Assembly: GCA_021803085.1 (NCBI GenBank)
Contig: JAJZMD010000017.1
Location: forward strand, 11,393-75,392
Direction: 5' to 3'
DNA from: Actinomycetes bacterium
Lineage (GTDB): Bacteria; Actinomycetota; Acidimicrobiia; Acidimicrobiales; RAAP-2
Length of the DNA stretch: 64,000 nucleotides
Below are positions 49,806 through 62,161 of the stretch, piece after piece (within the stretch, counting starts at the first letter, position 1; each line of letters starts with the position of its first letter). A model generated the notes under the pieces. That model searched no databases. It worked only from the letters and a program-made list of their open reading frames with translations, and was not told where the DNA came from. A program made the position numbers and the translations under genes.

Positions 49806-49834
49806 GCGTGCGTCAGCGTGCGTCAGCGTGCGTG
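49806..49834. repeat. 10-bp tandem repeat x2.9 (GCGTGCGTCA) overlapping the cyclase gene stop
   Basis: Read directly. Confidence 0.9.
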
Positions 49835-52800
49835 GACCGAGGCGGCCGACGCGGCCCGCGCAAGGAGCGGCGGGCAGCGCAGCTGCTCGGCGATCGCCCT
49901 CGCCTCCGCCAGCGCCTCGTCGACGCCGCCCTCGCCGGCACGCGCCAGCACCTCGGCAAGGTCGATGAGCCCGTGGGCAAGGTGGTAGGGGTTCCCGACC
50001 TCGCGCAACGTGCTGACGGCATCGTGCACGGCAGGCACCGCCGAGGTGGCTGCGGGTTCACCATCGGCCGCGAGGAGAGCAGCCACGAGCTTCCGCAGAG
50101 CACGCAGGATCGGCGGGAGGTGGCCGACGGGGTACGAATCGAGCATCGAGAGAAGCTGGCGGGCCGTGTCGGTGTCGCCGAGCGTCCGCGCGGCGCGGGC
50201 GGCCACCGGCCACGCCCAGCGCTCGCTCTCGTGCCTGATGGCCAGCTCGTCCCGGTGCGTAAGAACCTCGGTTGATCGGGTCAGCGCCTCTCGCTCGTCG
50301 CCTGCCGCTGCGGCGGCGAGCGCCCGCACCAGCCCAAGCACGGCCAGCGCCTGGATGTCGTCCCCCACTGTGACGCTCGACAGTGCGAGGACCGCCGATG
50401 CCGCCCCGTCGGCATCGCCGCGCAGCCCTGCAACGACACCCGCGCAGCGCTGGAGAGCCGGATGAGCGAGAGAGCCTCCCTCGCCGAATGACGAGAGCAC
50501 GGCGAGCGCCTCGTCCCACTCGCCAACCTCGACGAGCGCGATGCTGAGATTGCCCAGCGCGTACGCGAGCAAATCGGACGTCCCGGTCCTGCTCGCGTGG
50601 GTCGCCGCCGATCGCGCCGCCTCGGCAGCACCGCGGGGGTCGACGGGCGCGAGGCAGTCGGAGAGGTTCAGCTGCGCAAGGGCGAGGACGCCGAGGTCGC
50701 CCGCCCGCTCGGCGAGACGCACCGCCGTCTGGTAAGCGCTCTCCGCCTCGATCACGCGGTTCGTCCAGCTGGCTGCGTGGCCCTTGGCGATGAAGAGGCG
50801 GGCCTGAGAGCCGAGCCCGGTGTCGAGCGCCTGCGCCAGCGCGAGCGCCTCTGTCGTGAGCCGCTGCGCCTCGGCCAGGTCTCCTCGCGTCAGCGTGTGA
50901 AGCACGGACGCGTTGACCAGGGCCTCCACGGTGTCGACGTCAGGCCCCTCCCGGAGGACCTCGAGCGCCGCCGCGACCTCATTGCGGCCCTCCGCGCCTC
51001 GCCCGACTCGTCCGAGCGCGAACGCCATCTTCGAGCGCACCCTCGCCGCGGCCCGTGTTAGGCCGACCGCGCCGAACCGCTCGATCGCCTGCGTCGCGCA
51101 CCGGACGGACGCGTCATAGTCGCCGAAGTTCAGGTACATGTCGGCGGCGCGCTCGTACAGCCCCGCCGCCTCGTCGTCAGGTGCGACGGTGGTTGCCTGG
51201 AGGTAGCTCTCGGCGGCGCGTAGCGGCGCCCCGGAACGCTCGGCGCGCTCAGCGGCGCGGATCAGCTGACGCAGTGCCTCTCTCGTGACGTCTGCGACGT
51301 CCGGGTCGCTCGGACCGTAGGAGAGCGCGTCGAGATAGTGCCGGGCGAGGGCGTCCGCGATCTCCTCTGCGTCGTTCGGGAACGCGGACCGCAGGTGCGC
51401 CGCCACGGCCAGGTGCCGTGCCTTGCGGTCCTTCTTGGAAAGCGTCTCGTAGGCCACCTGGCGGAGCATCTCCTGGCTGAAGCAGTAGGCGCCCCGTTCG
51501 GGGGAGAGTGGGTCGGCGATGACCTGGAGCACGTCGCGCTTCACGAGCTCGGAGAGGCCTGCCGTGACGGTCTCCGCACCTGCACCGGCGACCGCGACGA
51601 GCGCATCCTTCGGGAAGGTCGTCCCGAGCACGCTCGCGTCGGCGACGAGGGTGCGCACCTCTGCCGGCAGCGCGTCGAGGCGCGCCGCCAAGAGCGCGTG
51701 GAGGGAGCCCGGCACGCTGAGGGCGCCGAGATCCTGCACGAGGCGGTAGGCGGGGCCGTCGCGCTCGACCACGCCTTGGTCGATGAGCGACCTCACCGTC
51801 TCCACTGCGAAGAGCGGGATCCCCTGGGCCCTGTCGGTGATGACGCCGCGTGCGGCGGGGGGCATCCCCGGGACGAGCGAGTCCACCAGGAGGGTCATCG
51901 ACGCGTCGTCGAGGGGGTCCAGCGAGAGCGTCGTCCGGTTGCGGCCCACGCCGTAGCCCGAATCGATCGCCTCGAGACCGGGACGGGCGAAGAGGATCAC
52001 GAAGATCGAGAGATCCCTCGTCCAGTCGACGAGGTGCTCGAAGAACCCGAGGAGGCTCTGGTCCGCGTACTGGGCGTCCTCGACCAGCATCGCGACCGGG
52101 GCGACCTGGGCGAGACGCTCGAAGAAGAGGCGCCAACCCGCGTAGAGCTCGTCCTGGGAGAAGACCACCTTCGCCTCGGAGGGGTAGGGGACCCCGAGCA
52201 GCCGGGAGAGCCGGATGCCCACGTAGGCGCGCTCGGCCTCGTCCGCGACGTAGCGGACCATGCCCTCGCGCAGCTTCGACGCTGCGACCTCGGTCGGGTC
52301 TTCCTCTGCGATGCCGAAGCGCTGGCGTACGATCTCGGCCAGCGCCCAGAAGGCGACGCCCTCTCCGTAGGAGAGGCAGCGTCCCCGGTGCCAGAGGACC
52401 GTGTCGGCGAGCCCGTCGATGTACTTGTCGAACTCCCACCCGAGCCGCGACTTGCCGACCCCGGCGGGCCCGGAGACGACCACGAGCCGGGGCGTCCTTC
52501 GCTCGACGGAGGCGTGGAAGAGGTCCTTCAACGCCCGGAGCTCGACGTCGCGGCCGGTGAACGGTGCCTCCAGCCCGTCCGCCCGCTTCTTGCCTCCCAC
52601 CCCCGAGAGCACGCGGATGGCCCGGAAGAGCTGCTCGGGGTGCTCCTTCCCCTTCAACTCGAAGTTGCCGGCATCTTCCAACAAGATGGAGGACTCCGAG
52701 AGCCTCCTCGTGGCGGCGTCGACCAGCACCGTGCCGGAGCCGGCGACCGACTGCACCCGGGAGGCGGTGTTCACGGCGTCGCCGGCGACCATGCCCTCGC

Positions 52801-53374
52801 CTTGGGCACCGATGGTGACGGCGACCTCGCCGGTCACGACCCCTGCCCGTGCCGCAAGGTCGGGGGCCCCGACCTCGGCCCCGAGCACGCCGACCGCGCC
52901 CACGAGATCCAAGGCCGCACGGACGGCCCGCTCGGCGTCGCCCTCGTCGGCGACCGGCGTCCCCCACACCGCCATCACGGCGTCACCGATGAACTTCTCC
53001 ACGATCCCGCCGTAGCGGATGACGGTCCTCCGAGCCACGTCGAAGTAGCGCGACAGGATCTCCCGGACCTCTTCGGGATCCTTGGACTCCGAGAGCGGCG
53101 TGAACCCCACCAGGTCGGCGAAGAGGATCGAGCATACCCGGCGCTCGGAGACGGTCCCGGGATCCGTCCCGGCCGTGACGGCGGGGGAAGCACCGGACGC
53201 AGCGAGCCCGTCGGCTCCCACCTCTGCAAGCACGCTCCCGCACTCTCCGCAGAAGGAGAACTGGGCAGCATTGGGCGAACCGCACGAGGGGCACACGCGG
53301 GTCAGGGCGGCTCCGCAGCCGCCGCAGAACTTGCGGCCGATGGGATTCTCGGTCCCGCACGCGCTGCAGCGCAT
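49823..53374 (-). CDS. multidomain signalling protein: double zinc-ribbon + class III adenylate/guanylate cyclase + AAA/STAND ATPase + TPR
   Basis: 1183 aa from ATG comp(53372..53374), with GGAGGG 6 nt upstream. MRCSACGTENP..CGGCG..CPSCG..CGECG; cyclase core ILFADLVGFT..FIGDAVMAVWG; Walker A VVSGPAGVGKSRL; a long helical TPR-like C-terminus; no LuxR HTH. Confidence 0.85.
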   Translation of the reverse strand: MRCSACGTENPIGRKFCGGCGAALTRVCPSCGSPNAAQFSFCGECGSVLAEVGADGLAASGASPAVTAGTDPGTVSERRVCSILFADLVGFTPLSESKDPEEVREILSRYFDVARRTVIRYGGIVEKFIGDAVMAVWGTPVADEGDAERAVRAALDLVGAVGVLGAEVGAPDLAARAGVVTGEVAVTIGAQGEGMVAGDAVNTASRVQSVAGSGTVLVDAATRRLSESSILLEDAGNFELKGKEHPEQLFRAIRVLSGVGGKKRADGLEAPFTGRDVELRALKDLFHASVERRTPRLVVVSGPAGVGKSRLGWEFDKYIDGLADTVLWHRGRCLSYGEGVAFWALAEIVRQRFGIAEEDPTEVAASKLREGMVRYVADEAERAYVGIRLSRLLGVPYPSEAKVVFSQDELYAGWRLFFERLAQVAPVAMLVEDAQYADQSLLGFFEHLVDWTRDLSIFVILFARPGLEAIDSGYGVGRNRTTLSLDPLDDASMTLLVDSLVPGMPPAARGVITDRAQGIPLFAVETVRSLIDQGVVERDGPAYRLVQDLGALSVPGSLHALLAARLDALPAEVRTLVADASVLGTTFPKDALVAVAGAGAETVTAGLSELVKRDVLQVIADPLSPERGAYCFSQEMLRQVAYETLSKKDRKARHLAVAAHLRSAFPNDAEEIADALARHYLDALSYGPSDPDVADVTREALRQLIRAAERAERSGAPLRAAESYLQATTVAPDDEAAGLYERAADMYLNFGDYDASVRCATQAIERFGAVGLTRAAARVRSKMAFALGRVGRGAEGRNEVAAALEVLREGPDVDTVEALVNASVLHTLTRGDLAEAQRLTTEALALAQALDTGLGSQARLFIAKGHAASWTNRVIEAESAYQTAVRLAERAGDLGVLALAQLNLSDCLAPVDPRGAAEAARSAATHASRTGTSDLLAYALGNLSIALVEVGEWDEALAVLSSFGEGGSLAHPALQRCAGVVAGLRGDADGAASAVLALSSVTVGDDIQALAVLGLVRALAAAAAGDEREALTRSTEVLTHRDELAIRHESERWAWPVAARAARTLGDTDTARQLLSMLDSYPVGHLPPILRALRKLVAALLAADGEPAATSAVPAVHDAVSTLREVGNPYHLAHGLIDLAEVLARAGEGGVDEALAEARAIAEQLRCPPLLARAASAASVHAR

Positions 53375-53541
53375 CGACGCCCTCCACATCCGCCGGCGCC
53401 CGGCGCCGGTCCAGCTGCGGCCGAAATTACACGCGCCCTCCTGGGCTCGGAGCCGCCGCCACCGACCGGGGCCGGACCCGACCGGCCGCAATGGAAGACC
53501 TGGATAACCTTTCGTCCCGTGCATCCTTTCGATGAGGTCCC

Positions 53542-54486
53542 GTGCGCTGCGTCGTAGCGGCGGGGGGCGCGGTCGCCTGCGCGGAACGGCCCGATCCGGT
53601 TCCCGGCACCCGCGAGCTGCTCGTGCGCGTGCGGGCGGCGGCGCTGAACGGTGCCGACCTGCACCAGGTCGCCGGGAGGTACCCCGTGCCGCCGGGGCTG
53701 CCGGCCGACCTCCTCGGGATCGAGGCCGCCGGCGTGGTCGAGGCCGCGGGGCCCGGTGTCACCCGCTTCGAGCCGGGAGACCGCGTCATGGCGGTCGTGT
53801 CGGCCGCAGGTCAGGCAGAGCTCGTCGTCGTCCACGAGCGTCTGGCCATGCCCGTGCCCGACAACCTGGGCTGGCCCGAGGCGGGCGGGTTCCCGGAGGT
53901 GTTCACGACGGCCCACGACGCACTGCTCACCCAGTGCGGGCTGCGGACCGGGGAACGAGTACTCGTGAACGGGGCGGCCGGGGGCGTTGGCGTCGCCGCC
54001 GTCCAGATCGCGGTCGCGACCGGCGCGACGGTCGTCGCCGGCGTCCGGTCGGAGCGCCTGCGCCCGGCGCTGGCCGAGCTGGGCGCCACGCCGGCCGAAC
54101 CGCAGGAGGCGTTCGGGCTCGGCCCCTTCGACGTCGTGCTGGAGCTCGTCGGGGCGCCCAACATCGGCGCCGACCTCGAGGCGCTGGCCATCGGCGGCAG
54201 GATCGCGGTGATCGGCGTGAGCGCGGGCTTCCTCGCAGAGTTGGACTTCCGGGTGCTCATGGCCCGTCGCGCCGCGATCCGCGGCTCGACCCTACGGCCC
54301 CGGCCGTTCGAGGAGAAGGCCCTTGCCGCCCGGCTGGTCGAGCGGCACGTGCTGCCGCTCGTCGCGGCAGGCCGGGTGCGCGTCCCCGTCGAAGCGACGT
54401 TCCCGCTCGAGGACTGCGCCGCCGCCTACGAGCGCTTCGCCGCCGGCGGGAAGCTCGGCAAGGTGGTCCTCGTCATCGGCGGATGA
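53542..54486 (+). CDS. NADPH:quinone oxidoreductase / zinc-type alcohol dehydrogenase family (MDR)
   Basis: 314 aa. LVRVRAAALNGADL, GIEAAGVV, VNGAAGGVGVAAVQIA. Confidence 0.8.
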   Translation: MRCVVAAGGAVACAERPDPVPGTRELLVRVRAAALNGADLHQVAGRYPVPPGLPADLLGIEAAGVVEAAGPGVTRFEPGDRVMAVVSAAGQAELVVVHERLAMPVPDNLGWPEAGGFPEVFTTAHDALLTQCGLRTGERVLVNGAAGGVGVAAVQIAVATGATVVAGVRSERLRPALAELGATPAEPQEAFGLGPFDVVLELVGAPNIGADLEALAIGGRIAVIGVSAGFLAELDFRVLMARRAAIRGSTLRPRPFEEKALAARLVERHVLPLVAAGRVRVPVEATFPLEDCAAAYERFAAGGKLGKVVLVIGG

Positions 54487-54940
54487 GAGCTGGGCGCCGC
54501 GCAGGGCCGGCGGCCACCGGAGACGGGTCGACGGGCTCGAGGCGCAGGAGCGGGAACGGACGGCTCGTGCGGGCGAGGTAGAGCCGGACGTGGGGGAAGG
54601 CCCGGTACACCGCGTCGAAGGCGGCGGCGCGCTCGGGACCCTCGAGGAGGACCGGAGTGACCGCGATGCGCCGGTGGTGGCGTTCGATCTCGGCCGGGCT
54701 GCCCGCCACGAGGTTCTTGAACCAGGCGGGATCGGTGTCGGAGCCGGCGTTCGCCCCGCAGACGACCGGTACCCCGTCGAGCTCCACGCAGGCGACGAGG
54801 ACGGCGCGCACCTGCCCGCTGCGGCGGCCCCTGGTCCGCAGCAGCAGCACGTCGGACAGTCCGAGCGCGCAGGCACCGATGCTTGCGCCGACCCAGCGGT
54901 AGCAGGTGACGTCCAGACGGGTCCACAGCCGCGCCGTCAC
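54473..54940 (-). CDS. deazaflavin(F420H2)-dependent nitroreductase-family protein (Ddn/DUF385-like)
   Basis: 155 aa. LLLRTRGRRSGQVR..PAWFKNLVA..PVLLEG. Confidence 0.65.
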   Translation of the reverse strand: MTARLWTRLDVTCYRWVGASIGACALGLSDVLLLRTRGRRSGQVRAVLVACVELDGVPVVCGANAGSDTDPAWFKNLVAGSPAEIERHHRRIAVTPVLLEGPERAAAFDAVYRAFPHVRLYLARTSRPFPLLRLEPVDPSPVAAGPARRPALIRR

Positions 54941-55056
54941 CCGGTCCAGCCGGGCGCGTCGCCGTCCGCTCGGACGCGCCGGGCGGTAGACGCGGGTGCA
55001 GACCCGGGCGGCCTGCGGGCGGTAGCGGGGCTCAGCCGGCGTGGGTCACCACCTCC

Positions 55057-57294
55057 TCATGCTCGTCGGTCGACTGCCGGCGCGGCCGGGACGCTGTCGC
55101 GGGCGAGCCGGGAGGCGAGCTCGGCAGCGAAGCCCGCCGGGCCGAACGACGTCGGCTCGGTGCCGAGCTCGCCCGGCCCGAAGGCGGCCTGTGCGACCAC
55201 GTCGGCGCCCTTGGCTTCGAGCACCCGGCGCACGGCGGGCAGCGTCCCTCTCGGCGCCACCGAGAAGGTGCAGAAGATGCCGGCGGTCTTCCCGGCCAGA
55301 CGCGGCAAGCCGGCCAGCCAGGCGGCGGTGGCTTTGGCGGGGCCGACCCTTGCGACCACGAGCCCCTCGACCCAGGTGCCCACGACCACGACGTGGGCGT
55401 TCGCCAGCTCGAGCGGGCCGACCCGGTCGATGGAAAGGCTGCGCACGCTGTGGTCGTGGTCGGCCAGCGCGGCGGCGATCTCCGTGGCCACGCGAGCGGT
55501 GCGCCCACCCCGGCTCTCGTAGCAGACGAGCACGCGCCGGGCGCCGCCCGCATGTGGGCGCCCGGGCCGGCTCGGCCGGGCCGAGAGGAGCGCCGCGGCC
55601 GCCCGCCGTCCCTGGGCCATGGCCTCGACGACGGTCGAGGGACCGATCAGGGCGTCGCCGGCCACGAAGAGGCGGTCTCGGGGCGCGAAGGCAGCTGCCC
55701 ACAGGCCCTGCTCGCGCCGCAGGGCGAGGCGCCCGACAGGGTCCCGGTGGGCGCCGGCGGCCGGCGCGGCGAGCACGCCGCTGGCGGTCCAGCGCCGGTC
55801 GGGCAAAGCGTCCACCTCCAGCCGTTGCGGGGTGCCCGGCGCCACGGCGGCGAAGGCCGGGTCGTTGCGATATCCCATCGCCATGACGACCAGGCCGACG
55901 TCGACGACCTCGGGTGGGAGGCGGAGGACCTTCGGGCGATCCTCGGGGCGGTCCTGGGCGGTCGACGACAGGAAGGCCTGCTCCACCCGCCCTTCGCCCA
56001 CGAGGCGGGCCAAGGTGCGCGAGAAGCGCACCTCGACGCCTTCGCGCCGCGCCTCGTCGAGCTCGTCGGGGCGGGCGAGCGCGAAGCGCTCCTCGAGCCA
56101 GTCGACGCACAGCGCCCGGAGGCCGAGACGAATGGCGCTCCTGGCGACGTCCATGGCGGTGTTGCCCGCGCCCAGCACGAGCACCAGCGGGGGCGTGCTG
56201 CCGTGCCCGAGGTGGAGCCCGAGCGAGGAGCAGAGGTCCTGCCGGCTGCCGCCTGGCTCGAGGGCAGCCTTGGCGCCGCGCAGGAAGCTCGTGGCGTCGA
56301 CGACCCCGTCGAGCTCGGCGCCGGGCACCCGCAGGCGCAGCGGCTCGCCCGCCCCGTTCGCCAGGACCACCGCGTCGTGCCCGGCGAGCAGCGCGCCCAG
56401 ATCCTCGGGGCGGATCTCGGCGCCGCAGCGCAGGTCGACGCCGGCCGCCTCGAGCTGGCGCCAGGGTCTGGCGGCGATCTCCTCGGGCAGGGTGAAGTCG
56501 GGGATCCCCCAGCCGAGCAGACCCCCGGGGCGCTCGTCGCGTTCGTAGACGGTGACCTCGGCGCCCGCCTCGAGGAGCTCCCAGGCGGCACCGATCCCCG
56601 CCGGGCCTGCTCCCACGACCCCCACCGACAGCACGTCGGCGCCAGCGTCGCCGCCACGTCGAGGCAGGGTCGAGGGGGGCGGGACGGGCAGCTGGTCGGC
56701 GACGAAGCGCTCGAGGCGGCCGATCGCCACCGGAATCCCGCCGGCGAGGGACCAGGTGCAGGCGCCCTCGCACTGGGCGGCCTGGTTGCACACCCGGGCG
56801 CACACGTCGGGCAGCACCGAGGTGGCCCGCAACACCTCGTGGGCGCGGGCGAGGTCTCGGTCGCGCACGGCGGCGATGAAGGCGGGGATGTCGTTGTGCG
56901 CCGGGCAGCCCCGCACGCAGGTCGGGTCCGGGCAGGCGAGGCAGCGCTGCGCCTCGGCGAGCGCCTCCGCCCAGGTGCCGAAGCCCGACCGGACCTCGCT
57001 CACGTCGCCGAGAAGCGAAGCCGGGCGCGCCTGGGCGGGGTCGTGGCGCTCGGCGACGACGATCGGACCCTCGACGGTGATCGCCGAGAACGGGCAGGTG
57101 CGCACGCACTGGCGGCAGCCGACGCACGCGTCGGAGTCGGCGACCGCCACCCAGGTGGCGGTGTCCATGTGCAGCGCTGCAGCCGGGCAGCGGATCACGC
57201 ACTCCTGGCAGCCGGCGCAGCGATCGACGAGCACCCTCACCTGCGGGCGGACGACCGGAGAGCGCTCGAGGGTGGCTTCGTCGAGCACGGTCAC
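55057..57294 (-). CDS. fusion oxidoreductase: 2x[4Fe-4S] ferredoxin + GltD/NfnB-like NAD(P)H-FAD domain + C-terminal flavodoxin-like domain
   Basis: 745 aa. CAGCQECVIRCP and CVGCRQCVRTCP; CLACPDPTCVRGCPAHNDIPAF; VVGAGPAGIGAA; C-terminal RVLVCYESRGGRTARVA..VVVGTWVEG. Competing giant track ORFs (55046..58195-, 55393..60018+) are wrong frame. Confidence 0.8.
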   Translation of the reverse strand: MTVLDEATLERSPVVRPQVRVLVDRCAGCQECVIRCPAAALHMDTATWVAVADSDACVGCRQCVRTCPFSAITVEGPIVVAERHDPAQARPASLLGDVSEVRSGFGTWAEALAEAQRCLACPDPTCVRGCPAHNDIPAFIAAVRDRDLARAHEVLRATSVLPDVCARVCNQAAQCEGACTWSLAGGIPVAIGRLERFVADQLPVPPPSTLPRRGGDAGADVLSVGVVGAGPAGIGAAWELLEAGAEVTVYERDERPGGLLGWGIPDFTLPEEIAARPWRQLEAAGVDLRCGAEIRPEDLGALLAGHDAVVLANGAGEPLRLRVPGAELDGVVDATSFLRGAKAALEPGGSRQDLCSSLGLHLGHGSTPPLVLVLGAGNTAMDVARSAIRLGLRALCVDWLEERFALARPDELDEARREGVEVRFSRTLARLVGEGRVEQAFLSSTAQDRPEDRPKVLRLPPEVVDVGLVVMAMGYRNDPAFAAVAPGTPQRLEVDALPDRRWTASGVLAAPAAGAHRDPVGRLALRREQGLWAAAFAPRDRLFVAGDALIGPSTVVEAMAQGRRAAAALLSARPSRPGRPHAGGARRVLVCYESRGGRTARVATEIAAALADHDHSVRSLSIDRVGPLELANAHVVVVGTWVEGLVVARVGPAKATAAWLAGLPRLAGKTAGIFCTFSVAPRGTLPAVRRVLEAKGADVVAQAAFGPGELGTEPTSFGPAGFAAELASRLARDSVPAAPAVDRRA

Positions 57295-57309
57295 GAAGTC
57301 GCCTCCTGC

Positions 57310-58902
57310 TCAGTCCGCCGCGTGCATGAGCACGTAGAGCACCGCGGCGGCGGCCCCGCAGGCGAGCGCCACACCCACGGTCGCCACCCGTACCGCCACC
57401 TTGTGGTCGCTGATCGGCACCAGCTCGTTGGAGGTGATCCGCCAGGTGGCCCACGCCGCCGCCAGGGCCCCGAGGCAGACGACAGCCACCTGGACGACGA
57501 CGATCCAGCCGTTGGTCATGATCGAGAGGCGGTAGACCGGCGAGCGGGTCGAGGAAAGGCCGGCGATGTCCGCCACCGCCGGCACCACCCGCGGCGCGTG
57601 CTGGAAGAACTTCGGCAGCTGGCGGGCGAAGTAGTCGGCGCCCATGACCGGGATGAGCCCGTAGGCCATCGGCACGAAGAACGCCCGGAAGCGCGACGTC
57701 CGCTCCAGGAACCGCCCGGGGCGGGCGGAGCCGACGGCGGGGCGGGCGGAGCCGACGGCGGGGCGCGAGCCGACCCCGGGGCTGGCAACGCCCTTGGCGA
57801 TCAGCGCGGCGGCCGCGACGAACGCGAGCGCGCCGACTGCGATCATCCCGAGGTAGCCGATCGGGTTCGGGTAGTGGGGGAACCCGAGGTGTGCGTCGAG
57901 CCAGCTCTCGGCCGCGGCGAAGGCGTTGGTGGCGTTGAGCTGCTGGTAGAGGACGAGCCCCCACAACAAGGCGATCCCCCACGCGACGTCCGCCCGGCGC
58001 CGCCGTGGGGCGACGACCGACGTGAGCGGCTTGTGGAGGAACAGGCCGACGTTTCCCTCCGGGCAGGCCTTGTAGCACTCCGAGCACAGCCCGCAGTAGA
58101 AGTTCGAGTCCGCGCTCCCGGGCCACGTGTACCACGGGCAGCCGAACCCGTCGGTGCCGCCGCGCATGCAGTCCTTGGTCCGGCACGTCAAGCACACCTC
58201 GCGGTCACGGGTGCGGAATCCGGCGACCGAGCCCATCGATCCCACCGTGCCGATCAGGGTGGTGAGCGGGCAGACGTATCGGCAGAAGGTGCGCCGCTCG
58301 AAGACCAAGAAGAACGCCAGCGCGGAGGCGACGATGCCCACCACCATCCAGGAGGTGTCGGCCGGGTTGCCGGGACCGGCGATGTTGAAGAACTCCTCGA
58401 TCCAGGTGAGCACCAAGAAGCTCGCCACCGGGATCAAGAACCCGACACGGGCCAGCGGCTCGGGGAACGTGCGTCCCAGGCCGAGCGCCTTCTGCGTGCG
58501 GGTGAAGAAGCTGCGGCGCTGCACCCACTCGGCGAAGCCGCCGAAGGGGCACATGGCGCACCAGGCCCGGCCGACCACGACCATCATCACGAACACCAGG
58601 CAGAACCACACGTACCACGTGATCGCCGCCCCGAAGTTCAAGCCGGGCACCGCCGTGCCGAGCAGGCCGACGAAGATCACCGTCCAGAAGATGATCTGGT
58701 TCGGCAGGATCAGGAGGAACTGGAACTTGCGGCTGCGCACCACTCGGGCGACGCGCGGGTGAGCGGTGAGCTCGGCACCTGGGAGAGGATCCGTCGGCGC
58801 GAAGCGGTCGGCGAGCCCGGCACGCTCCGGGCCCCGCAGGCGGATCGAAGCGGGCAATGGGTCGCGCAACGGTGCGATCTCGTCCTGCACGATTGCTGCC
58901 AT
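57310..58902 (-). CDS. integral-membrane polyferredoxin (NapH/MauN/YccM-like 4Fe-4S binding protein)
   Basis: 530 aa from the internal ATG (MAAIVQDE..). Multiple TM segments; CAMCPFG, CRYVCP, CLTCRTKDC, CGLCSECYKACP. Confidence 0.75.
   Translation of the reverse strand: MAAIVQDEIAPLRDPLPASIRLRGPERAGLADRFAPTDPLPGAELTAHPRVARVVRSRKFQFLLILPNQIIFWTVIFVGLLGTAVPGLNFGAAITWYVWFCLVFVMMVVVGRAWCAMCPFGGFAEWVQRRSFFTRTQKALGLGRTFPEPLARVGFLIPVASFLVLTWIEEFFNIAGPGNPADTSWMVVGIVASALAFFLVFERRTFCRYVCPLTTLIGTVGSMGSVAGFRTRDREVCLTCRTKDCMRGGTDGFGCPWYTWPGSADSNFYCGLCSECYKACPEGNVGLFLHKPLTSVVAPRRRRADVAWGIALLWGLVLYQQLNATNAFAAAESWLDAHLGFPHYPNPIGYLGMIAVGALAFVAAAALIAKGVASPGVGSRPAVGSARPAVGSARPGRFLERTSRFRAFFVPMAYGLIPVMGADYFARQLPKFFQHAPRVVPAVADIAGLSSTRSPVYRLSIMTNGWIVVVQVAVVCLGALAAAWATWRITSNELVPISDHKVAVRVATVGVALACGAAAAVLYVLMHAAD
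57718..57774 (-). repeat. in-frame 21-bp tandem repeat x2.7 coding (PAVGSAR)n
   Basis: GGGGCGGGCGGAGCCGACGGC twice perfect, plus a degenerate third copy, inside the polyferredoxin gene. Confidence 0.9.
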
Positions 58903-59001
58903 CCGCGCCTCCGGTACCGCGGGGCTGCGCTCCGTGGTTCCCGTTCCGTACGTGCACTTTACGCAAGCTCTGGACATGACGTCAAGTGGATAACTACACT
59001 T

Positions 59002-60018
59002 ATGGGGGTGAACCTGCGGCTCTCCAAGCGGGGCGACTATGTCGTGCGCTCGGCAATCTGCCTCGCCCGTGCCTATCCCTCGGATCGGCCGACGAAGCTC
59101 CGCGAGGTCTCGGCCGAGACGGGCGTACCGCGCACCTACGTCTCCCAGATCCTGGGCGACCTCGTGCGTGCGGAGGTGGCGGTCTCATCGGCCGGCCTTC
59201 ATGGCGGCTACCGCCTCGCCCGACCCCCCGCCGCCATCAGCCTCTTGGAGGTCGTCGAGGCCGGCGAGGGCAGCCTCGTCGCAGAGAGCTGCGCGCTCGG
59301 CGACGGTCCGAGCCGATGGGAGGAGATCGTCCCCCTCCACGACGCCTGGCGCAGGGCAAGCCAGGCGCTCAGGGACGAGCTCGCCGTCACGACGCTCGCC
59401 GAGCTCGCCGAGGCCGACCAATCGATCGAGACCGGCGCCCATCGGGCGCCGGCCGACGCGCAACGCCACCGGGTGGCTGCGGTGGCCGTCGCCGACTCGG
59501 TGCACATCGAGCTGCCGGCCGCCGCGGTGGCGGCCCGGCTCCAAGAAGGGGACTCCTGGATGGCGCCGCACGTGGCCGCCGCCGCCGCGGACGTCGACGC
59601 GTTCCGGCTGCGTGTCGGGCCGGGGGGCCCCAGCTGGCTCGGCAAGACCGTCGCTGTCCGCCTCGGCAGGCCAGAGCGTGCGGGCGATGGCGTGCGGGTG
59701 GCGATCGTCTGGGAGGCGACGGGGGCCAGCGCGCTGTTCCCCCGCTTCGAAGGCACGCTCGACGTCGTGGACCTCGACCCGGAACGCTGCGAGGTGTCGC
59801 TCTTGGGGCGCTACCGCCCGCCCCTCGGTCGCGCCGGTCAGGCCCTCGACGACGTGCTGTTGGGCCGTGTCGCTCGAGCGACGGTCCGATCCCTGCTTCG
59901 CCGGGTTGCCCACGGCCTCGAACAGGCCCCGGCGGCAACAGCGGACCTCGAGCCCGCGCCCGTCTCCGAAGGACCTCCGACGTTCTCAGAACCCCAACCG
60001 GCCGGCGCGGCCGGGTAG
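59002..60018 (+). CDS. Rrf2-family wHTH regulator fused to a ~190-aa C-terminal START/SRPBCC-like domain
   Basis: 338 aa from ATG 59002 (GTG 59008 is possible). LRLSKRGDYVVRSAICLA..LREVSAETGVPRTYVSQILGDL..GGYRLARP. The C-terminal part FPRFEGTLDVV..LLGRYRPPLGRAGQALDDVLLGRVARATVRSLL resembles SRPBCC-type proteins. Confidence 0.7.
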   Translation: MGVNLRLSKRGDYVVRSAICLARAYPSDRPTKLREVSAETGVPRTYVSQILGDLVRAEVAVSSAGLHGGYRLARPPAAISLLEVVEAGEGSLVAESCALGDGPSRWEEIVPLHDAWRRASQALRDELAVTTLAELAEADQSIETGAHRAPADAQRHRVAAVAVADSVHIELPAAAVAARLQEGDSWMAPHVAAAAADVDAFRLRVGPGGPSWLGKTVAVRLGRPERAGDGVRVAIVWEATGASALFPRFEGTLDVVDLDPERCEVSLLGRYRPPLGRAGQALDDVLLGRVARATVRSLLRRVAHGLEQAPAATADLEPAPVSEGPPTFSEPQPAGAAG

Positions 60019-60268
60019 CCCGATCAAGGCGGCCCGCGGCCGGGTAGCCCGAGCAGACCTGGATCCGCGAACAAGAGGCTGCGCGGATGGGAAGATGTCC
60101 GCTGAGCCTCCAAGTATCCACGCAGCAGTAGTCGATCACCTTCGAGAGGTCGTGCCGCTTCTCGCCGACAACCGGCTCGCCTGCAAGATCTGGATGCATC
60201 CGGTATTGCCCCGGGGCCATCTTCGGGAGATAATTCACTCATGGGGATGGAATGTTGGGGGCTCTGAC

Positions 60269-61321
60269 GTGTCGCGGCGTCGGGTAGTTCGCGGCTCTCT
60301 GTTCACGCTGAGCGGTTGCGCGCTCGGCCTGCTGTACCTCGGGGGCGCGTTCTTCGGGTTGGTGGCCATCGGCCTTCCTCACGGGTCGCACTTCAACACT
60401 CTCGCGGACCTGGTCCTCGTTTCGATCGCTCTCGCGATCGGGGGGTGGGCATGGTCGCGCCGGGAGCTGGGCCCGATGCCCACCTCCGTGCTGCTGACCC
60501 TGGGCACGGTATTGGTCTCAGCCGGGGTCTACTCGGGGCGAGGTGACGACATCTCGATGAGCGCGGCCGTGCTCTACGTCGTCCTGGCCCTCGGTGCAGG
60601 GCTCTTCGTCTCGCCCCGGCGGGTCGTCGGCCAGGTCGTCCTGATGGGCGCGGAGTACGCCGCAGTGCTTGGCCTTACGGGTAATCAGGCAGCGGTCGCC
60701 GAGTGGCTGTTCGTCGTCGGGGCGGTGACGGTGACCGCGTGGGTCACCTCGATGAACCGTTCCGCGCTGGTCCGCCTGGCTCAGCGCGACCCGCTGACCG
60801 GCCTGGCCAATCGAGATGCGCTGCGTAGTGTGCTGGATCTCGAGCTGGCGCGGTCACAGCGGTGCGGCCGGCCGCTCAGCGTGGCAGTGGTCGACCTCGA
60901 CGAGTTCAAGGCCCTGAACGACCAGCAAGGCCATTTGGCCGGCGACGAAGCCCTGGTGCGCCTCGTCGACGCCTGGCGCTCGGAGCTCCGGGGCAGCGAC
61001 CTGCTCGCACGTTTCGGGGGCGACGAGTTCGTCGTCGTGCTCCCCGAGACCTCGATGTGGGAGGCCACCCGGGTGCTCCACCGCCTTCGTCAGCACGAGG
61101 GCGCGTGCTCATGGAGCGCCGGCCTCGCGGTGTGGGACGGGGTCGAGAGCGTGGACCGTCTCCTCCAACGCTCCGACGGCGCCCTCTACCGCGCAAAGGC
61201 GCGTCGCTTGAGCTCGTGGCTCGCGTTGGCGCGCCCAGACCGAGCGCCGCTCGCCGGCCCCGGCGCCGCCTTGGCCGGGACGACGACGAGGCCTCAACCA
61301 AGCGTAGAACCTCGCCTTTAG
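60269..61321 (+). CDS. membrane-anchored diguanylate cyclase (GGDEF)
   Basis: 350 aa from GTG 60269 (ATG 60194 is an alternative). About 5 N-terminal TM segments, DPLTGLANR, RFGGDEFVVVL. Confidence 0.8.
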   Translation: MSRRRVVRGSLFTLSGCALGLLYLGGAFFGLVAIGLPHGSHFNTLADLVLVSIALAIGGWAWSRRELGPMPTSVLLTLGTVLVSAGVYSGRGDDISMSAAVLYVVLALGAGLFVSPRRVVGQVVLMGAEYAAVLGLTGNQAAVAEWLFVVGAVTVTAWVTSMNRSALVRLAQRDPLTGLANRDALRSVLDLELARSQRCGRPLSVAVVDLDEFKALNDQQGHLAGDEALVRLVDAWRSELRGSDLLARFGGDEFVVVLPETSMWEATRVLHRLRQHEGACSWSAGLAVWDGVESVDRLLQRSDGALYRAKARRLSSWLALARPDRAPLAGPGAALAGTTTRPQPSVEPRL

Positions 61322-61552: not shown

Positions 61553-62161
61553 CTACCGGCGGCCGGCGACCTCGATGACGACGGGGACCAGGGTCGGGTC
61601 GAAGAGCGTGCCGGCGTTCTCGGCCAGGTGGCCGAGGGCCTCCTCGGAGGTGAAGGCCCGGTACCGGTAGCTGCGCTGTTGGGTCATGGAGTCGTAGACG
61701 TCCACGAGCCCGACGATGCGGCCGATGAGGGGGATCTCCTCTCCCGCGTAGCCCGCGGGGTAGCCCGAGCCGTCGAATCGTTCGTGATGGGTCTCGATGC
61801 CGGCGGCGGCGATGTCGAGCTGATGGCAGAAAGACCCCCCGGACGGCGGGCAGCACGAGCGCACCAGCTCCGCGCCGATGGTCGGGTGGCGCTTGATCTC
61901 CTGCCACTGCGCGGCGTCGAGCGGGCCGGGCCAGGCGAGGGTTCGCTCGGGAACTCCGAGCTTCCCGAGATCGTGGAGCGTTCCCGCGAAGGTCAACGCT
62001 TCGAGATCGGCCTCACTGAGATCGAGCAGCGCCCCGACGGCACGGGCGAGGGCGCCGACTCGCGCCGAGTGCACACCAGTCGGTAGGTCGTAGGCGGCGA
62101 TCGCCTCGCCGAACGCCGGCGCCAGCCGGGGCCGCGTCGTCTCGATCGGTCCCATGCTCAC
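61553..62161 (-). CDS. HD-GYP domain phosphodiesterase (stand-alone)
   Basis: 202 aa. TLHDLGKLGVP, HHERFDGSGYP. Confidence 0.8.
   Translation of the reverse strand: MSMGPIETTRPRLAPAFGEAIAAYDLPTGVHSARVGALARAVGALLDLSEADLEALTFAGTLHDLGKLGVPERTLAWPGPLDAAQWQEIKRHPTIGAELVRSCCPPSGGSFCHQLDIAAAGIETHHERFDGSGYPAGYAGEEIPLIGRIVGLVDVYDSMTQQRSYRYRAFTSEEALGHLAENAGTLFDPTLVPVVIEVAGRR

Follow-up and report, generated by a model that had tools for sequence, protein, structure and literature searches.

A 64,000-nucleotide (nt) window of DNA from a metagenome-assembled genome (MAG) of the acidimicrobial lineage RAAP-2 (GenBank assembly GCA_021803085.1, contig JAJZMD010000017.1, positions 11,393 to 75,392 of the forward strand) carries two adjacent minus-strand genes. 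One encodes a NapH-like iron-sulphur (Fe-S) membrane protein and the other a soluble fusion of ferredoxin, NfnB/GltD-type and flavodoxin domains. The combination is a real, conserved and uncharacterised redox pair. Judged by sequence, the parts of the system belong to known superfamilies (PF12801 NapH-like, NfnB/GltD, flavodoxin, FDOR-A and Rrf2). The chances seem evenly balanced that the two proteins are subunits of a membrane-anchored, NAD(P)H-oxidising Fe-S flavoprotein complex that carries electrons from NADH into the membrane, probably to menaquinone. In full-text searches, no paper came up on such an arrangement, in which a NapH-like membrane protein has a ferredoxin-NfnB-flavodoxin fusion as its dedicated donor and a long Rrf2 as its regulator. 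An earlier sequence-only reading of this DNA had called the architecture uncharacterised, which agrees with the searches: they turned up neither a publication on the pair nor a solved structure of it. The pair is laid out as follows (aa, amino acids; FAD, flavin adenine dinucleotide).

57310..58902, minus strand: membrane subunit, 530 aa, NapH-like (PF12801), from Pfam and homologue alignment.
55057..57294, minus strand: soluble subunit, 745-aa fusion, from Pfam, fold and profile matches.
57076-57228, minus strand (aa 23-73): ferredoxin domain of the fusion, 2x[4Fe-4S].
55570-57000, minus strand (aa 99-575): NfnB/GltD-type core of the fusion, with 2x[4Fe-4S], FAD and an NAD(P)H site.
55099-55536, minus strand (aa 587-732): flavodoxin-like domain of the fusion.

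The fusion starts 15 nt past the stop of the membrane gene, behind an AGGAGG ribosome site, and a third same-strand gene, for a Ddn-type protein, starts 116 nt past the fusion stop. All three genes lie at the coordinates, on the strand and with the gaps that the sequence-only reading had given. Codon-position bias is as expected in the three minus-strand open reading frames (ORFs). The ATG of the membrane gene at 58902 has GGAGG just upstream and is shared with 517-aa homologues (query coverage 96-100%). A 555-aa reading from the ATG at 58977 was rejected: its start falls within the predicted promoter, and the homologues begin at the 58902 position. A scan found no terminator-like site between the three genes. 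Its lone call (58442-58455) falls inside the membrane gene, at a level that shuffled sequences reach as well; folding of the 116-nt spacer is likewise not better than that of shuffles (z -0.49).

Gene order ties the two large genes firmly together. With one genome per species, 199 loci have a membrane-protein relative, and tblastn was run over the best 80 of them; counts out of 65 refer to loci with room for a downstream gene, and counts out of 48 to the full-context subset. The fusion lies directly downstream of the membrane gene, on the same strand and in the same order, in 65 of 65 loci, which bears out the expected co-conservation of the two genes. The pairing persists at 57% (L092) and 46% (L091) membrane-protein identity, in L091 without the flavodoxin. 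The fusion family has more than 2000 database matches of ~740 aa at 60-93% identity, and this recurrence of one architecture places the gene set far beyond chance. The membrane-protein family has 624 database matches, and the database names for both families are generic only. A frameshift or misassembly as the source of the fusion was rejected: the 745-aa frame is intact, 59 of the 65 relatives have the same three domains, and the more than 2000 matches are full-length, so the triple fusion is real, as had been claimed. The flavodoxin domain is lacking in the other six loci (L021, where the fusion ORF is 585 aa, and L024, L025, L062, L065 and L081). Since it is missing there and in the distant member L091, the flavin mononucleotide (FMN) end of the cofactor wire is dispensable for core function. 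The sequence-only reading had drawn a three-gene module. Its two large genes stand as the core, but the Ddn-type gene is ruled out as a core member, occurring in only 9/48 loci, and a long Rrf2 regulator found <=6 kb from the pair in 43/48 loci had been omitted.

The membrane subunit matches PF12801 (Fer4_5) in two stretches at 44.9 bits against a gathering cut-off of 22, and the domain is shared by all its homologues. Its 12 Cys residues do not vary among 47 aligned homologues (mean column identity 71%, family 62-94% identical). Four of them form the Cys-Pro motifs C115-x2-C118-P and C207-x3-C211-P, after transmembrane (TM) helices TM2 and TM4. The other eight (C237, C240, C245, C255, C270, C273, C276 and C280) follow a dicluster pattern, CxxCx4C...CP / CxxCxxCx3CP. 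Hydropathy, the positive-inside rule and an AlphaFold2 (AF2) model (mean confidence score, pLDDT, 66.6; pTM 0.68) agree on a predicted topology of ~9 TM helices, with the N-terminus in and the C-terminus out. In this topology, four TM helices precede a cytoplasmic Fe-S insert (~227-290), and five further TM helices follow. Both Cys-Pro motifs and the 2x[4Fe-4S] ferredoxin-like insert are predicted on the cytoplasmic side. The insert is poorly modelled by AF2, as expected without clusters. The earlier description of a NapH/MauN-like, multi-TM protein of 530 aa thus holds for the PF12801 match, the predicted helices and the invariant Cys motifs, and the docking that it proposed would be possible with the Fe-S domain on the predicted cytoplasmic face.

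The C-terminal helices are joined by a variable cytoplasmic loop (373-403) and two conserved outer loops, in which H343, Y344, R427 and K431 are strongly conserved. Invariant charged residues lie in or near the TM helices (E169, E170, D423, R427 and K431), and the alignment holds no conserved haem-type His pairs in TM helices. The variable loop, a low-confidence stretch between TM6 and TM7 (~373-403), also contains in-frame PAVGSAR repeats (57718-57774, minus strand). The repeat is probably neutral, since it sits in the least conserved part of the family.

These features resemble those of NapH, MauN, NosR and PceC: TM helices with cytoplasmic Cys-x(2-3)-Cys-Pro motifs after them, a 2x[4Fe-4S] ferredoxin-like segment in the cytoplasm and no haem, in proteins that serve as modular elements of membrane electron transfer (PMC8238504). 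Within Nap, quinol binding is putatively assigned to the NapH subunit (PMC8238504). The likeness has clear limits. The protein misses the cut-offs of the NapH/MauN model TIGR02163 (32.7 against 213 bits) and of the NapH model PRK09477 (26.8 against 234 bits), and the NapH-model match is confined to the ferredoxin-like segment (residues 216-271 of the 555-aa reading). It has one CxxCP and one CxxxCP motif where NapH and MauN have two CX3CP motifs, and it carries five extra C-terminal TM helices, whereas NapH and MauN have four TM helices and a C-terminal 2x[4Fe-4S] segment. It is paired with an NAD(P)H flavoprotein of the cytoplasm, where NapH-type proteins have periplasmic NapG or a reductase. 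Unlike NapH-type systems, the pair has no nap, nos, mau or rdh genes, FMN_bind domain or ApbE nearby; napG, napC, napA and mau genes are absent from the window and from the 80 related loci. FMN_bind has no match in the membrane protein itself, and no recurrent FMN_bind or ApbE family occurs in the 80 neighbourhoods, whose genes were not all scanned against Pfam. Méheust et al. treat NapH-like proteins solely in flavinylated, FMN_bind-linked systems (PMC8238504). Like CcoG, FixG and YccM, the subunit is a Fer4_5-type membrane protein, and copper-type YHS and HMBD domains occur on its remote relatives. In contrast to CcoG, it lacks the FixG_C Ig-like domain, has no cco genes nearby and has its donor encoded next door. 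No relative was found in the Protein Data Bank by sequence or by fold (best fold E 0.12).

The soluble subunit is an NfnB/GltD-type flavoprotein with additions at both ends. Its core contains Fer4_20 (PF14691, aa 99-201, 2.9e-33, 114.5 bits), Pyr_redox_2 (PF07992, aa 224-482, 53.9 bits) and a GD motif at ~residue 546, and the alignment shows no variation in the 16 cluster Cys, the two dinucleotide motifs or the GD motif. The closest solved chains are Thermotoga maritima NfnB (4ylf_B, 6e-62) and Pyrococcus furiosus Xfn and NfnI-L, followed by GltD and dihydropyrimidine dehydrogenase (DPD), and the predicted fold superposes on 5jca_L (NfnI-L) and 4ylf_B with a TM-score of 0.79 on target. As in NfnB, NfnI-L, Xfn and GltD, Fer4_20 is joined to a double Rossmann core with both [4Fe-4S] Cys sets, the FAD GxGxxG and the GD motif. 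The fusion differs from NfnB and GltD in its N-terminal dicluster ferredoxin, its C-terminal flavodoxin and its constant place beside the membrane-protein gene, and it has an insertion of ~55 aa (residues 487-541) relative to their core. It falls below every NCBIfam equivalog cut-off (TIGR01316, gltA, 245 against 472 bits). A GltB- or NfnA-like gene is absent from the examined neighbourhoods, and no genome-wide search for one was made.

The C-terminal domain (587-732) scores below the Pfam gathering thresholds in the whole protein (19-23 against 25-27.5 bits for PF00258, PF12641 and PF12724). Its AF2 model is a confident five-stranded beta-alpha-beta flavodoxin fold (pLDDT ~85-93). The family profile of the domain matches solved short-chain flavodoxins from Megasphaera and Clostridium at 3e-7 to 1e-6, and its conserved YES-x-GG-x-T aligns with the YWSGTGNT phosphate loop of solved flavodoxins. 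Flavodoxin_5, a family that includes the menaquinone-dependent HemG, is matched by 16 of the 16 flavodoxin domains tested.

The nucleotide is most likely NADH rather than NADPH. The Y-R-R that comes after the second beta-strand of the NADPH domain in NfnB, Xfn and NfnI-L, at the 2'-phosphate site, is replaced in the fusion by D398-W399-L400, conserved as D in 51/51, W in 50/51 and L in 48/51 sequences. In Rossmann folds, an acidic residue at this position goes with NAD and an Arg pair with NADP, and the preference for NADH would follow from this rule. The NAD(P)H donor of the sequence-only reading is therefore kept as to its site and probably narrowed to NADH by the loss of the NADPH-binding Arg pair.

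Two known enzymes come closest in architecture. DPD also combines a GltD-like module and a dicluster ferredoxin in one polypeptide and connects NADPH and FAD to FMN by way of four [4Fe-4S] clusters. However, its domain order differs, its FMN lies in a TIM barrel with a pyrimidine site where that of the fusion is predicted in a flavodoxin fold, and it is soluble, without a membrane partner. AegA and YgfT of enterobacteria likewise join an N-terminal Fe-S ferredoxin part to a GltD-like core, and the fusion gives partial NCBIfam matches to them of 167-180 bits. These scores are far under the ~1000-bit cut-offs, and AegA and YgfT lack the flavodoxin domain and occur in other taxa. Neither is known to have a NapH-like partner gene.

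The proposed mechanism starts with hydride transfer from NADH, which the FAD of the soluble fusion would accept, as suggested by its motifs and its homology to NfnB, GltD and DPD. From FAD, single electrons would then cross the core's two [4Fe-4S] clusters and go on to the pair of clusters in the N-terminal ferredoxin domain. The ferredoxin end may dock on the cytoplasmic 2x[4Fe-4S] insert of the membrane subunit, a contact to which topology and the strict gene pairing point. This insert would lie beside the four-Cys CxxCP/CxxxCP site at the membrane surface, from where electrons would enter the membrane and most probably reach menaquinone. The pair would thereby act as an accessory NADH:quinone oxidoreductase, the least secure step of the scheme. 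Menaquinone is favoured by the analogy to NapH, the absence of haem ligands and of an exported domain in this branch, the recurrent Ddn-type neighbours and a PIG3-type gene next door. The match of the flavodoxin domains to Flavodoxin_5, the family of HemG, is a further hint of quinone. The flavodoxin would open a lateral branch in which FMN carries out one- or two-electron chemistry; given its absence in some lineages, the core path would not need it. The NAD(P)H-FAD-FeS-FMN wire of the sequence-only reading thus follows from the motifs, except that its FMN end is missing in 6/65 loci and in the distant member. Expression would be set by overlapping divergent promoters and the long Rrf2, often also by a PAS histidine kinase/NarL-type pair. 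The window holds one of two diverged copies in the genome; its regulator lacks Fe-S ligands, and it would have gained its Ddn-type and PIG3-type neighbours.

Several points weigh against electron delivery to menaquinone by such a complex. The physical interaction of the two proteins is drawn from gene order alone, and nucleotide specificity from three residues alone. The membrane subunit has no recognisable quinone site; it fails the NapH/MauN cut-off and has five extra TM helices. The module is patchy, found in 8/301 genomes of the class (6/136 genera), and is an accessory rather than a principal way into the respiratory chain. Both quinone-reductase neighbours are restricted to particular lineages (Ddn in 9/48 loci, PIG3 in 3 loci). 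Finally, the exported cytochrome c, YHS and HMBD domains of remote relatives point to extracellular acceptors over quinone.

These relatives came from a profile search over 1.84 billion representatives, which returned 965 clusters at E <= 1e-10, 253 of them at E <= 1e-30. Remote members (P0265, P0267, P0274, P0289 and P0317) match over the entire membrane core, C-terminal helices included, and a DPFGWGWN motif also occurs in their C-terminal part. They apparently form an unstudied family of trans-membrane Fe-S/haem or copper-linked proteins. Their N-terminal parts are exported domains of cytochrome c, multihaem c554, YHS or HMBD type. Elsewhere, therefore, the core works with extracytoplasmic redox or metal partners, which the paired branch has swapped for a cytoplasmic NAD(P)H flavoprotein. 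In locus L089 (5572-8015), the gene after that of a Fer4_5 membrane protein of 35-37% identity encodes a cupredoxin (COX2-like) and cytochrome c fusion in place of the NAD(P)H flavoprotein. Such relatives speak for the somewhat improbable alternative that the pair is an NADH-driven reductase of an outer-face or external acceptor (Cu(II), Fe(III) or an exported redox protein), with the membrane subunit working like CcoG, NosR or PceC and the fusion as donor. The two strongly conserved outer loops would suit this role, and iron and Fe-S status sensors occur among Fe-S-type Rrf2 regulators. Precedents include CcoG, a Fer4_5-type cupric reductase with two [4Fe-4S] clusters whose physiological donor is unknown (PMC7558416), and the proposal that NapH-like proteins are modular trans-membrane conduits (PMC8238504). 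The paired subfamily, however, has no exported domain, FMN_bind/ApbE partner or conserved exported neighbour, and the YHLAHNxxH motif of the remote relatives reads DYFARQLPK in it. No cofactor that could cross the bilayer is visible, and neither CcoG nor FixG_C models match the membrane protein at E <= 0.01.

The window copy is flanked by two genes of quinone-reductase families, which fits a stress-response reductase that would work with the Ddn- and PIG3-type enzymes to reduce quinones or redox cyclers, or to repair oxidised membrane components, under a thiol- or Fe-S-sensing Rrf2. The Zn-alcohol dehydrogenase-type and glyoxalase-fold genes beside the module in L001, the hydrophobic-ligand-type (SRPBCC-like) domain of the Rrf2 protein, and the patchy distribution with a second copy in the genome agree with it. 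We consider it unlikely: such detoxification-type neighbours occur in few lineages, no substrate is indicated, and a six-cluster, two-flavin membrane complex is elaborate where single soluble flavoenzymes already detoxify. Flavin-based bifurcation appears quite unlikely. Here the two electrons of NAD(P)H would part at the NfnB-type FAD, one going downhill to menaquinone by way of the Fe-S chain and the membrane subunit, the other uphill to the fused flavodoxin, with an outcome like that of Fix/EtfABCX. The closest solved relatives are the bifurcating NfnB, NfnI-L and NfnABC/Stn GltD-like modules, and the protein joins a low-potential carrier, the flavodoxin, to a route towards a membrane acceptor that is probably of high potential. 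EtfABCX is a precedent, with bifurcation from NADH to menaquinone plus ferredoxin (PMC10734219). Nonetheless, non-bifurcating GltD and DPD have the same core fold, the loci without flavodoxin (6/65 and L091) imply a dispensable second branch, and the examined neighbourhoods hold no NfnA-like [2Fe-2S]/FAD partner. There is only a slim chance that the pair is a new type of bifurcating enzyme, one that would give aerobic or microaerobic Acidimicrobiia without Etf/Fix or Rnf a membrane-coupled source of low-potential reductant. Reverse operation, in which the membrane subunit would take electrons from menaquinol and the proton-motive force would drive electrons uphill to NAD+ or the flavodoxin, is highly improbable. 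NapH is regarded as a quinol dehydrogenase, and the invariant E169, E170, D423, R427 and K431 and the five extra helices could form an ion path. Yet the subunit has no homology to known ion-translocating modules, the step is ~250 mV uphill with no demonstrated coupling device, and these organisms are heterotrophic, with no evident need for it.

NapH-like membrane Fe-S proteins (NapH, NosR, PceC and CcoG) are widespread, and their electron entry and in-membrane role are unclear. The pair described here offers a two-protein system with a defined electron entry, as gene order ties a NapH-like member to an NAD(P)H-FAD-[4Fe-4S]x4(-FMN) donor. Were menaquinone the acceptor, the pair would join NDH-1, NDH-2 and Nqr as another type of NADH:quinone oxidoreductase; were the acceptor outside the cell, it would be a haem-free trans-membrane reductase. 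Its carriers are abundant but uncultured soil and peat Acidimicrobiia. The best 80 loci all come from MAGs, mostly with Acidimicrobiales or Acidimicrobiaceae labels, and include no cultured member. In the window's own genus the module is present in 12/17 genomes.

The MAG itself (4.25 Mb, 296 contigs) has two module copies. The other lies on contig C222 (locus L004, 6698-11640), and its fusion and membrane protein are 65% and 76% identical to those of the window copy. Its order is membrane gene, fusion and triad-bearing long Rrf2, with a PAS-HisKA_3 kinase upstream. The window copy is without the kinase pair and lies near a DDE transposase remnant. Only one sister MAG has a near-identical counterpart of it (94%).

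Five further features surround the pair in the window (wHTH, winged helix-turn-helix).

54473..54940, minus strand: accessory gene, 155-aa Ddn/FDOR-A family (F420H2-dependent quinone reductase family).
59002..60018, plus strand: divergent regulator, long Rrf2 wHTH with a C-terminal SRPBCC/Polyketide_cyc2-like domain.
58956..58985, minus strand: promoter-like site of the membrane-gene operon, TTGACG-18-TAAAGT.
58971..59000, plus strand: promoter-like site of the Rrf2 gene, TGGACA-18-TACACT, overlapping the minus-strand site.
53542..54486, plus strand: PIG3-family NAD(P)H:quinone oxidoreductase-like gene, lineage-specific and non-core.

The regulator combines an Rrf2 wHTH (PF02082, 94.8 bits) with a weak Polyketide_cyc2/SRPBCC match, and its conserved start is probably the GTG at 59008. 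A C-x6-C-x5-C triad is kept in 66 of 79 Rrf2 homologues, and a PAS-HisKA_3 kinase with a NarL/GerE regulator accompanies the module in 27/48 loci. From the Fe-S Cys triad in most Rrf2 proteins and this frequent kinase pair, the module is probably switched by redox, O2 or Fe-S status. The window Rrf2 retains the first triad Cys and has lost the second and third, reading CALGDGPSRWEEIVP; in this protein and its two near-identical relatives the triad position reads C..S..V/G. It therefore lacks the C-x(5-6)-C-x5-C ligand set of Fe-S-type Rrf2 proteins (IscR/NsrR/RsrR type). Conserved at 95% in the sister MAG, it looks like an intact sensor that lost its Fe-S cluster. The triad-bearing and degenerate Rrf2/SRPBCC copies make a natural pair for studying the loss of a sensor cluster.

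The 99-bp divergent region (58903-59001) between regulator and membrane gene contains the two overlapping promoter-like sites, where 0.0 are expected in shuffles. In 27 divergent loci, a CTTGAC block is invariant on the membrane-gene promoter side and an AAGTaTAG block (opposite strand) is conserved on the Rrf2 promoter side. The Rrf2 promoter-like site ends 1-7 nt short of the start codon, and this abutting -10 box suggests a leaderless or near-leaderless Rrf2 mRNA. Many membrane-gene 5' leaders (L009-L081) carry repeated GTAG(T)..CTAC(A/G) and TACGG-type motifs, such as GTGTAGTCAGTAGCTACAC in L033; the window leader (58903-59001) has CACGTACGG only. These motifs are possible candidate operators for the Rrf2 or the NarL-type regulator.

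The third gene passes both cut-offs for its family (PF04075, 58.8 against 22 bits; TIGR00026, 62.7 against 46.35 bits), so its assignment as a Ddn/DUF385-type protein stands. It resembles Ddn (Rv3547) and the FDOR-A family, in an MAG that has an FbiC/CofH gene (473.5 bits, above cut-off), and by this gene F420 is plausibly available in the organism. In contrast to Ddn (Rv3547), it is only an accessory neighbour in a minority of loci, each time right behind the fusion. The PIG3-like gene matches TIGR02824 at 5.4e-78 and 262 bits, slightly below the cut-off of 296.8. It converges on the Ddn-type gene (plus and minus strands, respectively), with an overlap of 14 nt at the 3' ends, and has homologues elsewhere in loci L009 and L001 only.

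Any other gene family is shared by at most 12 of the 80 loci. Seven of them (L003, L007, L018 and four others) have, just past the fusion, a gene for a ~410-480-aa protein with a hydrophobic N-terminus and a weak PQQ_2/beta-propeller match, which could be an exported partner in that sub-lineage. On the other side of the PIG3-like gene, a minus-strand gene (49823-53524) encodes a 1233-aa protein with zinc-ribbon, class III nucleotide cyclase, AAA_16 and TPR parts, and it also adjoins the module in the sister MAG (L005/L009).

The G+C content of the region (~72-77%) produces many long spurious ORFs. One is a 760-aa plus-strand ORF (59039-61321), rejected as a single gene: it is a high-G+C artefact, and its 5' part runs across the Rrf2 gene in a different frame. 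It corresponds to a real gene only from ~60269 onwards, one for a membrane GGDEF protein, and an HD-GYP-type HD_5 gene at 61553-62161 converges on it.

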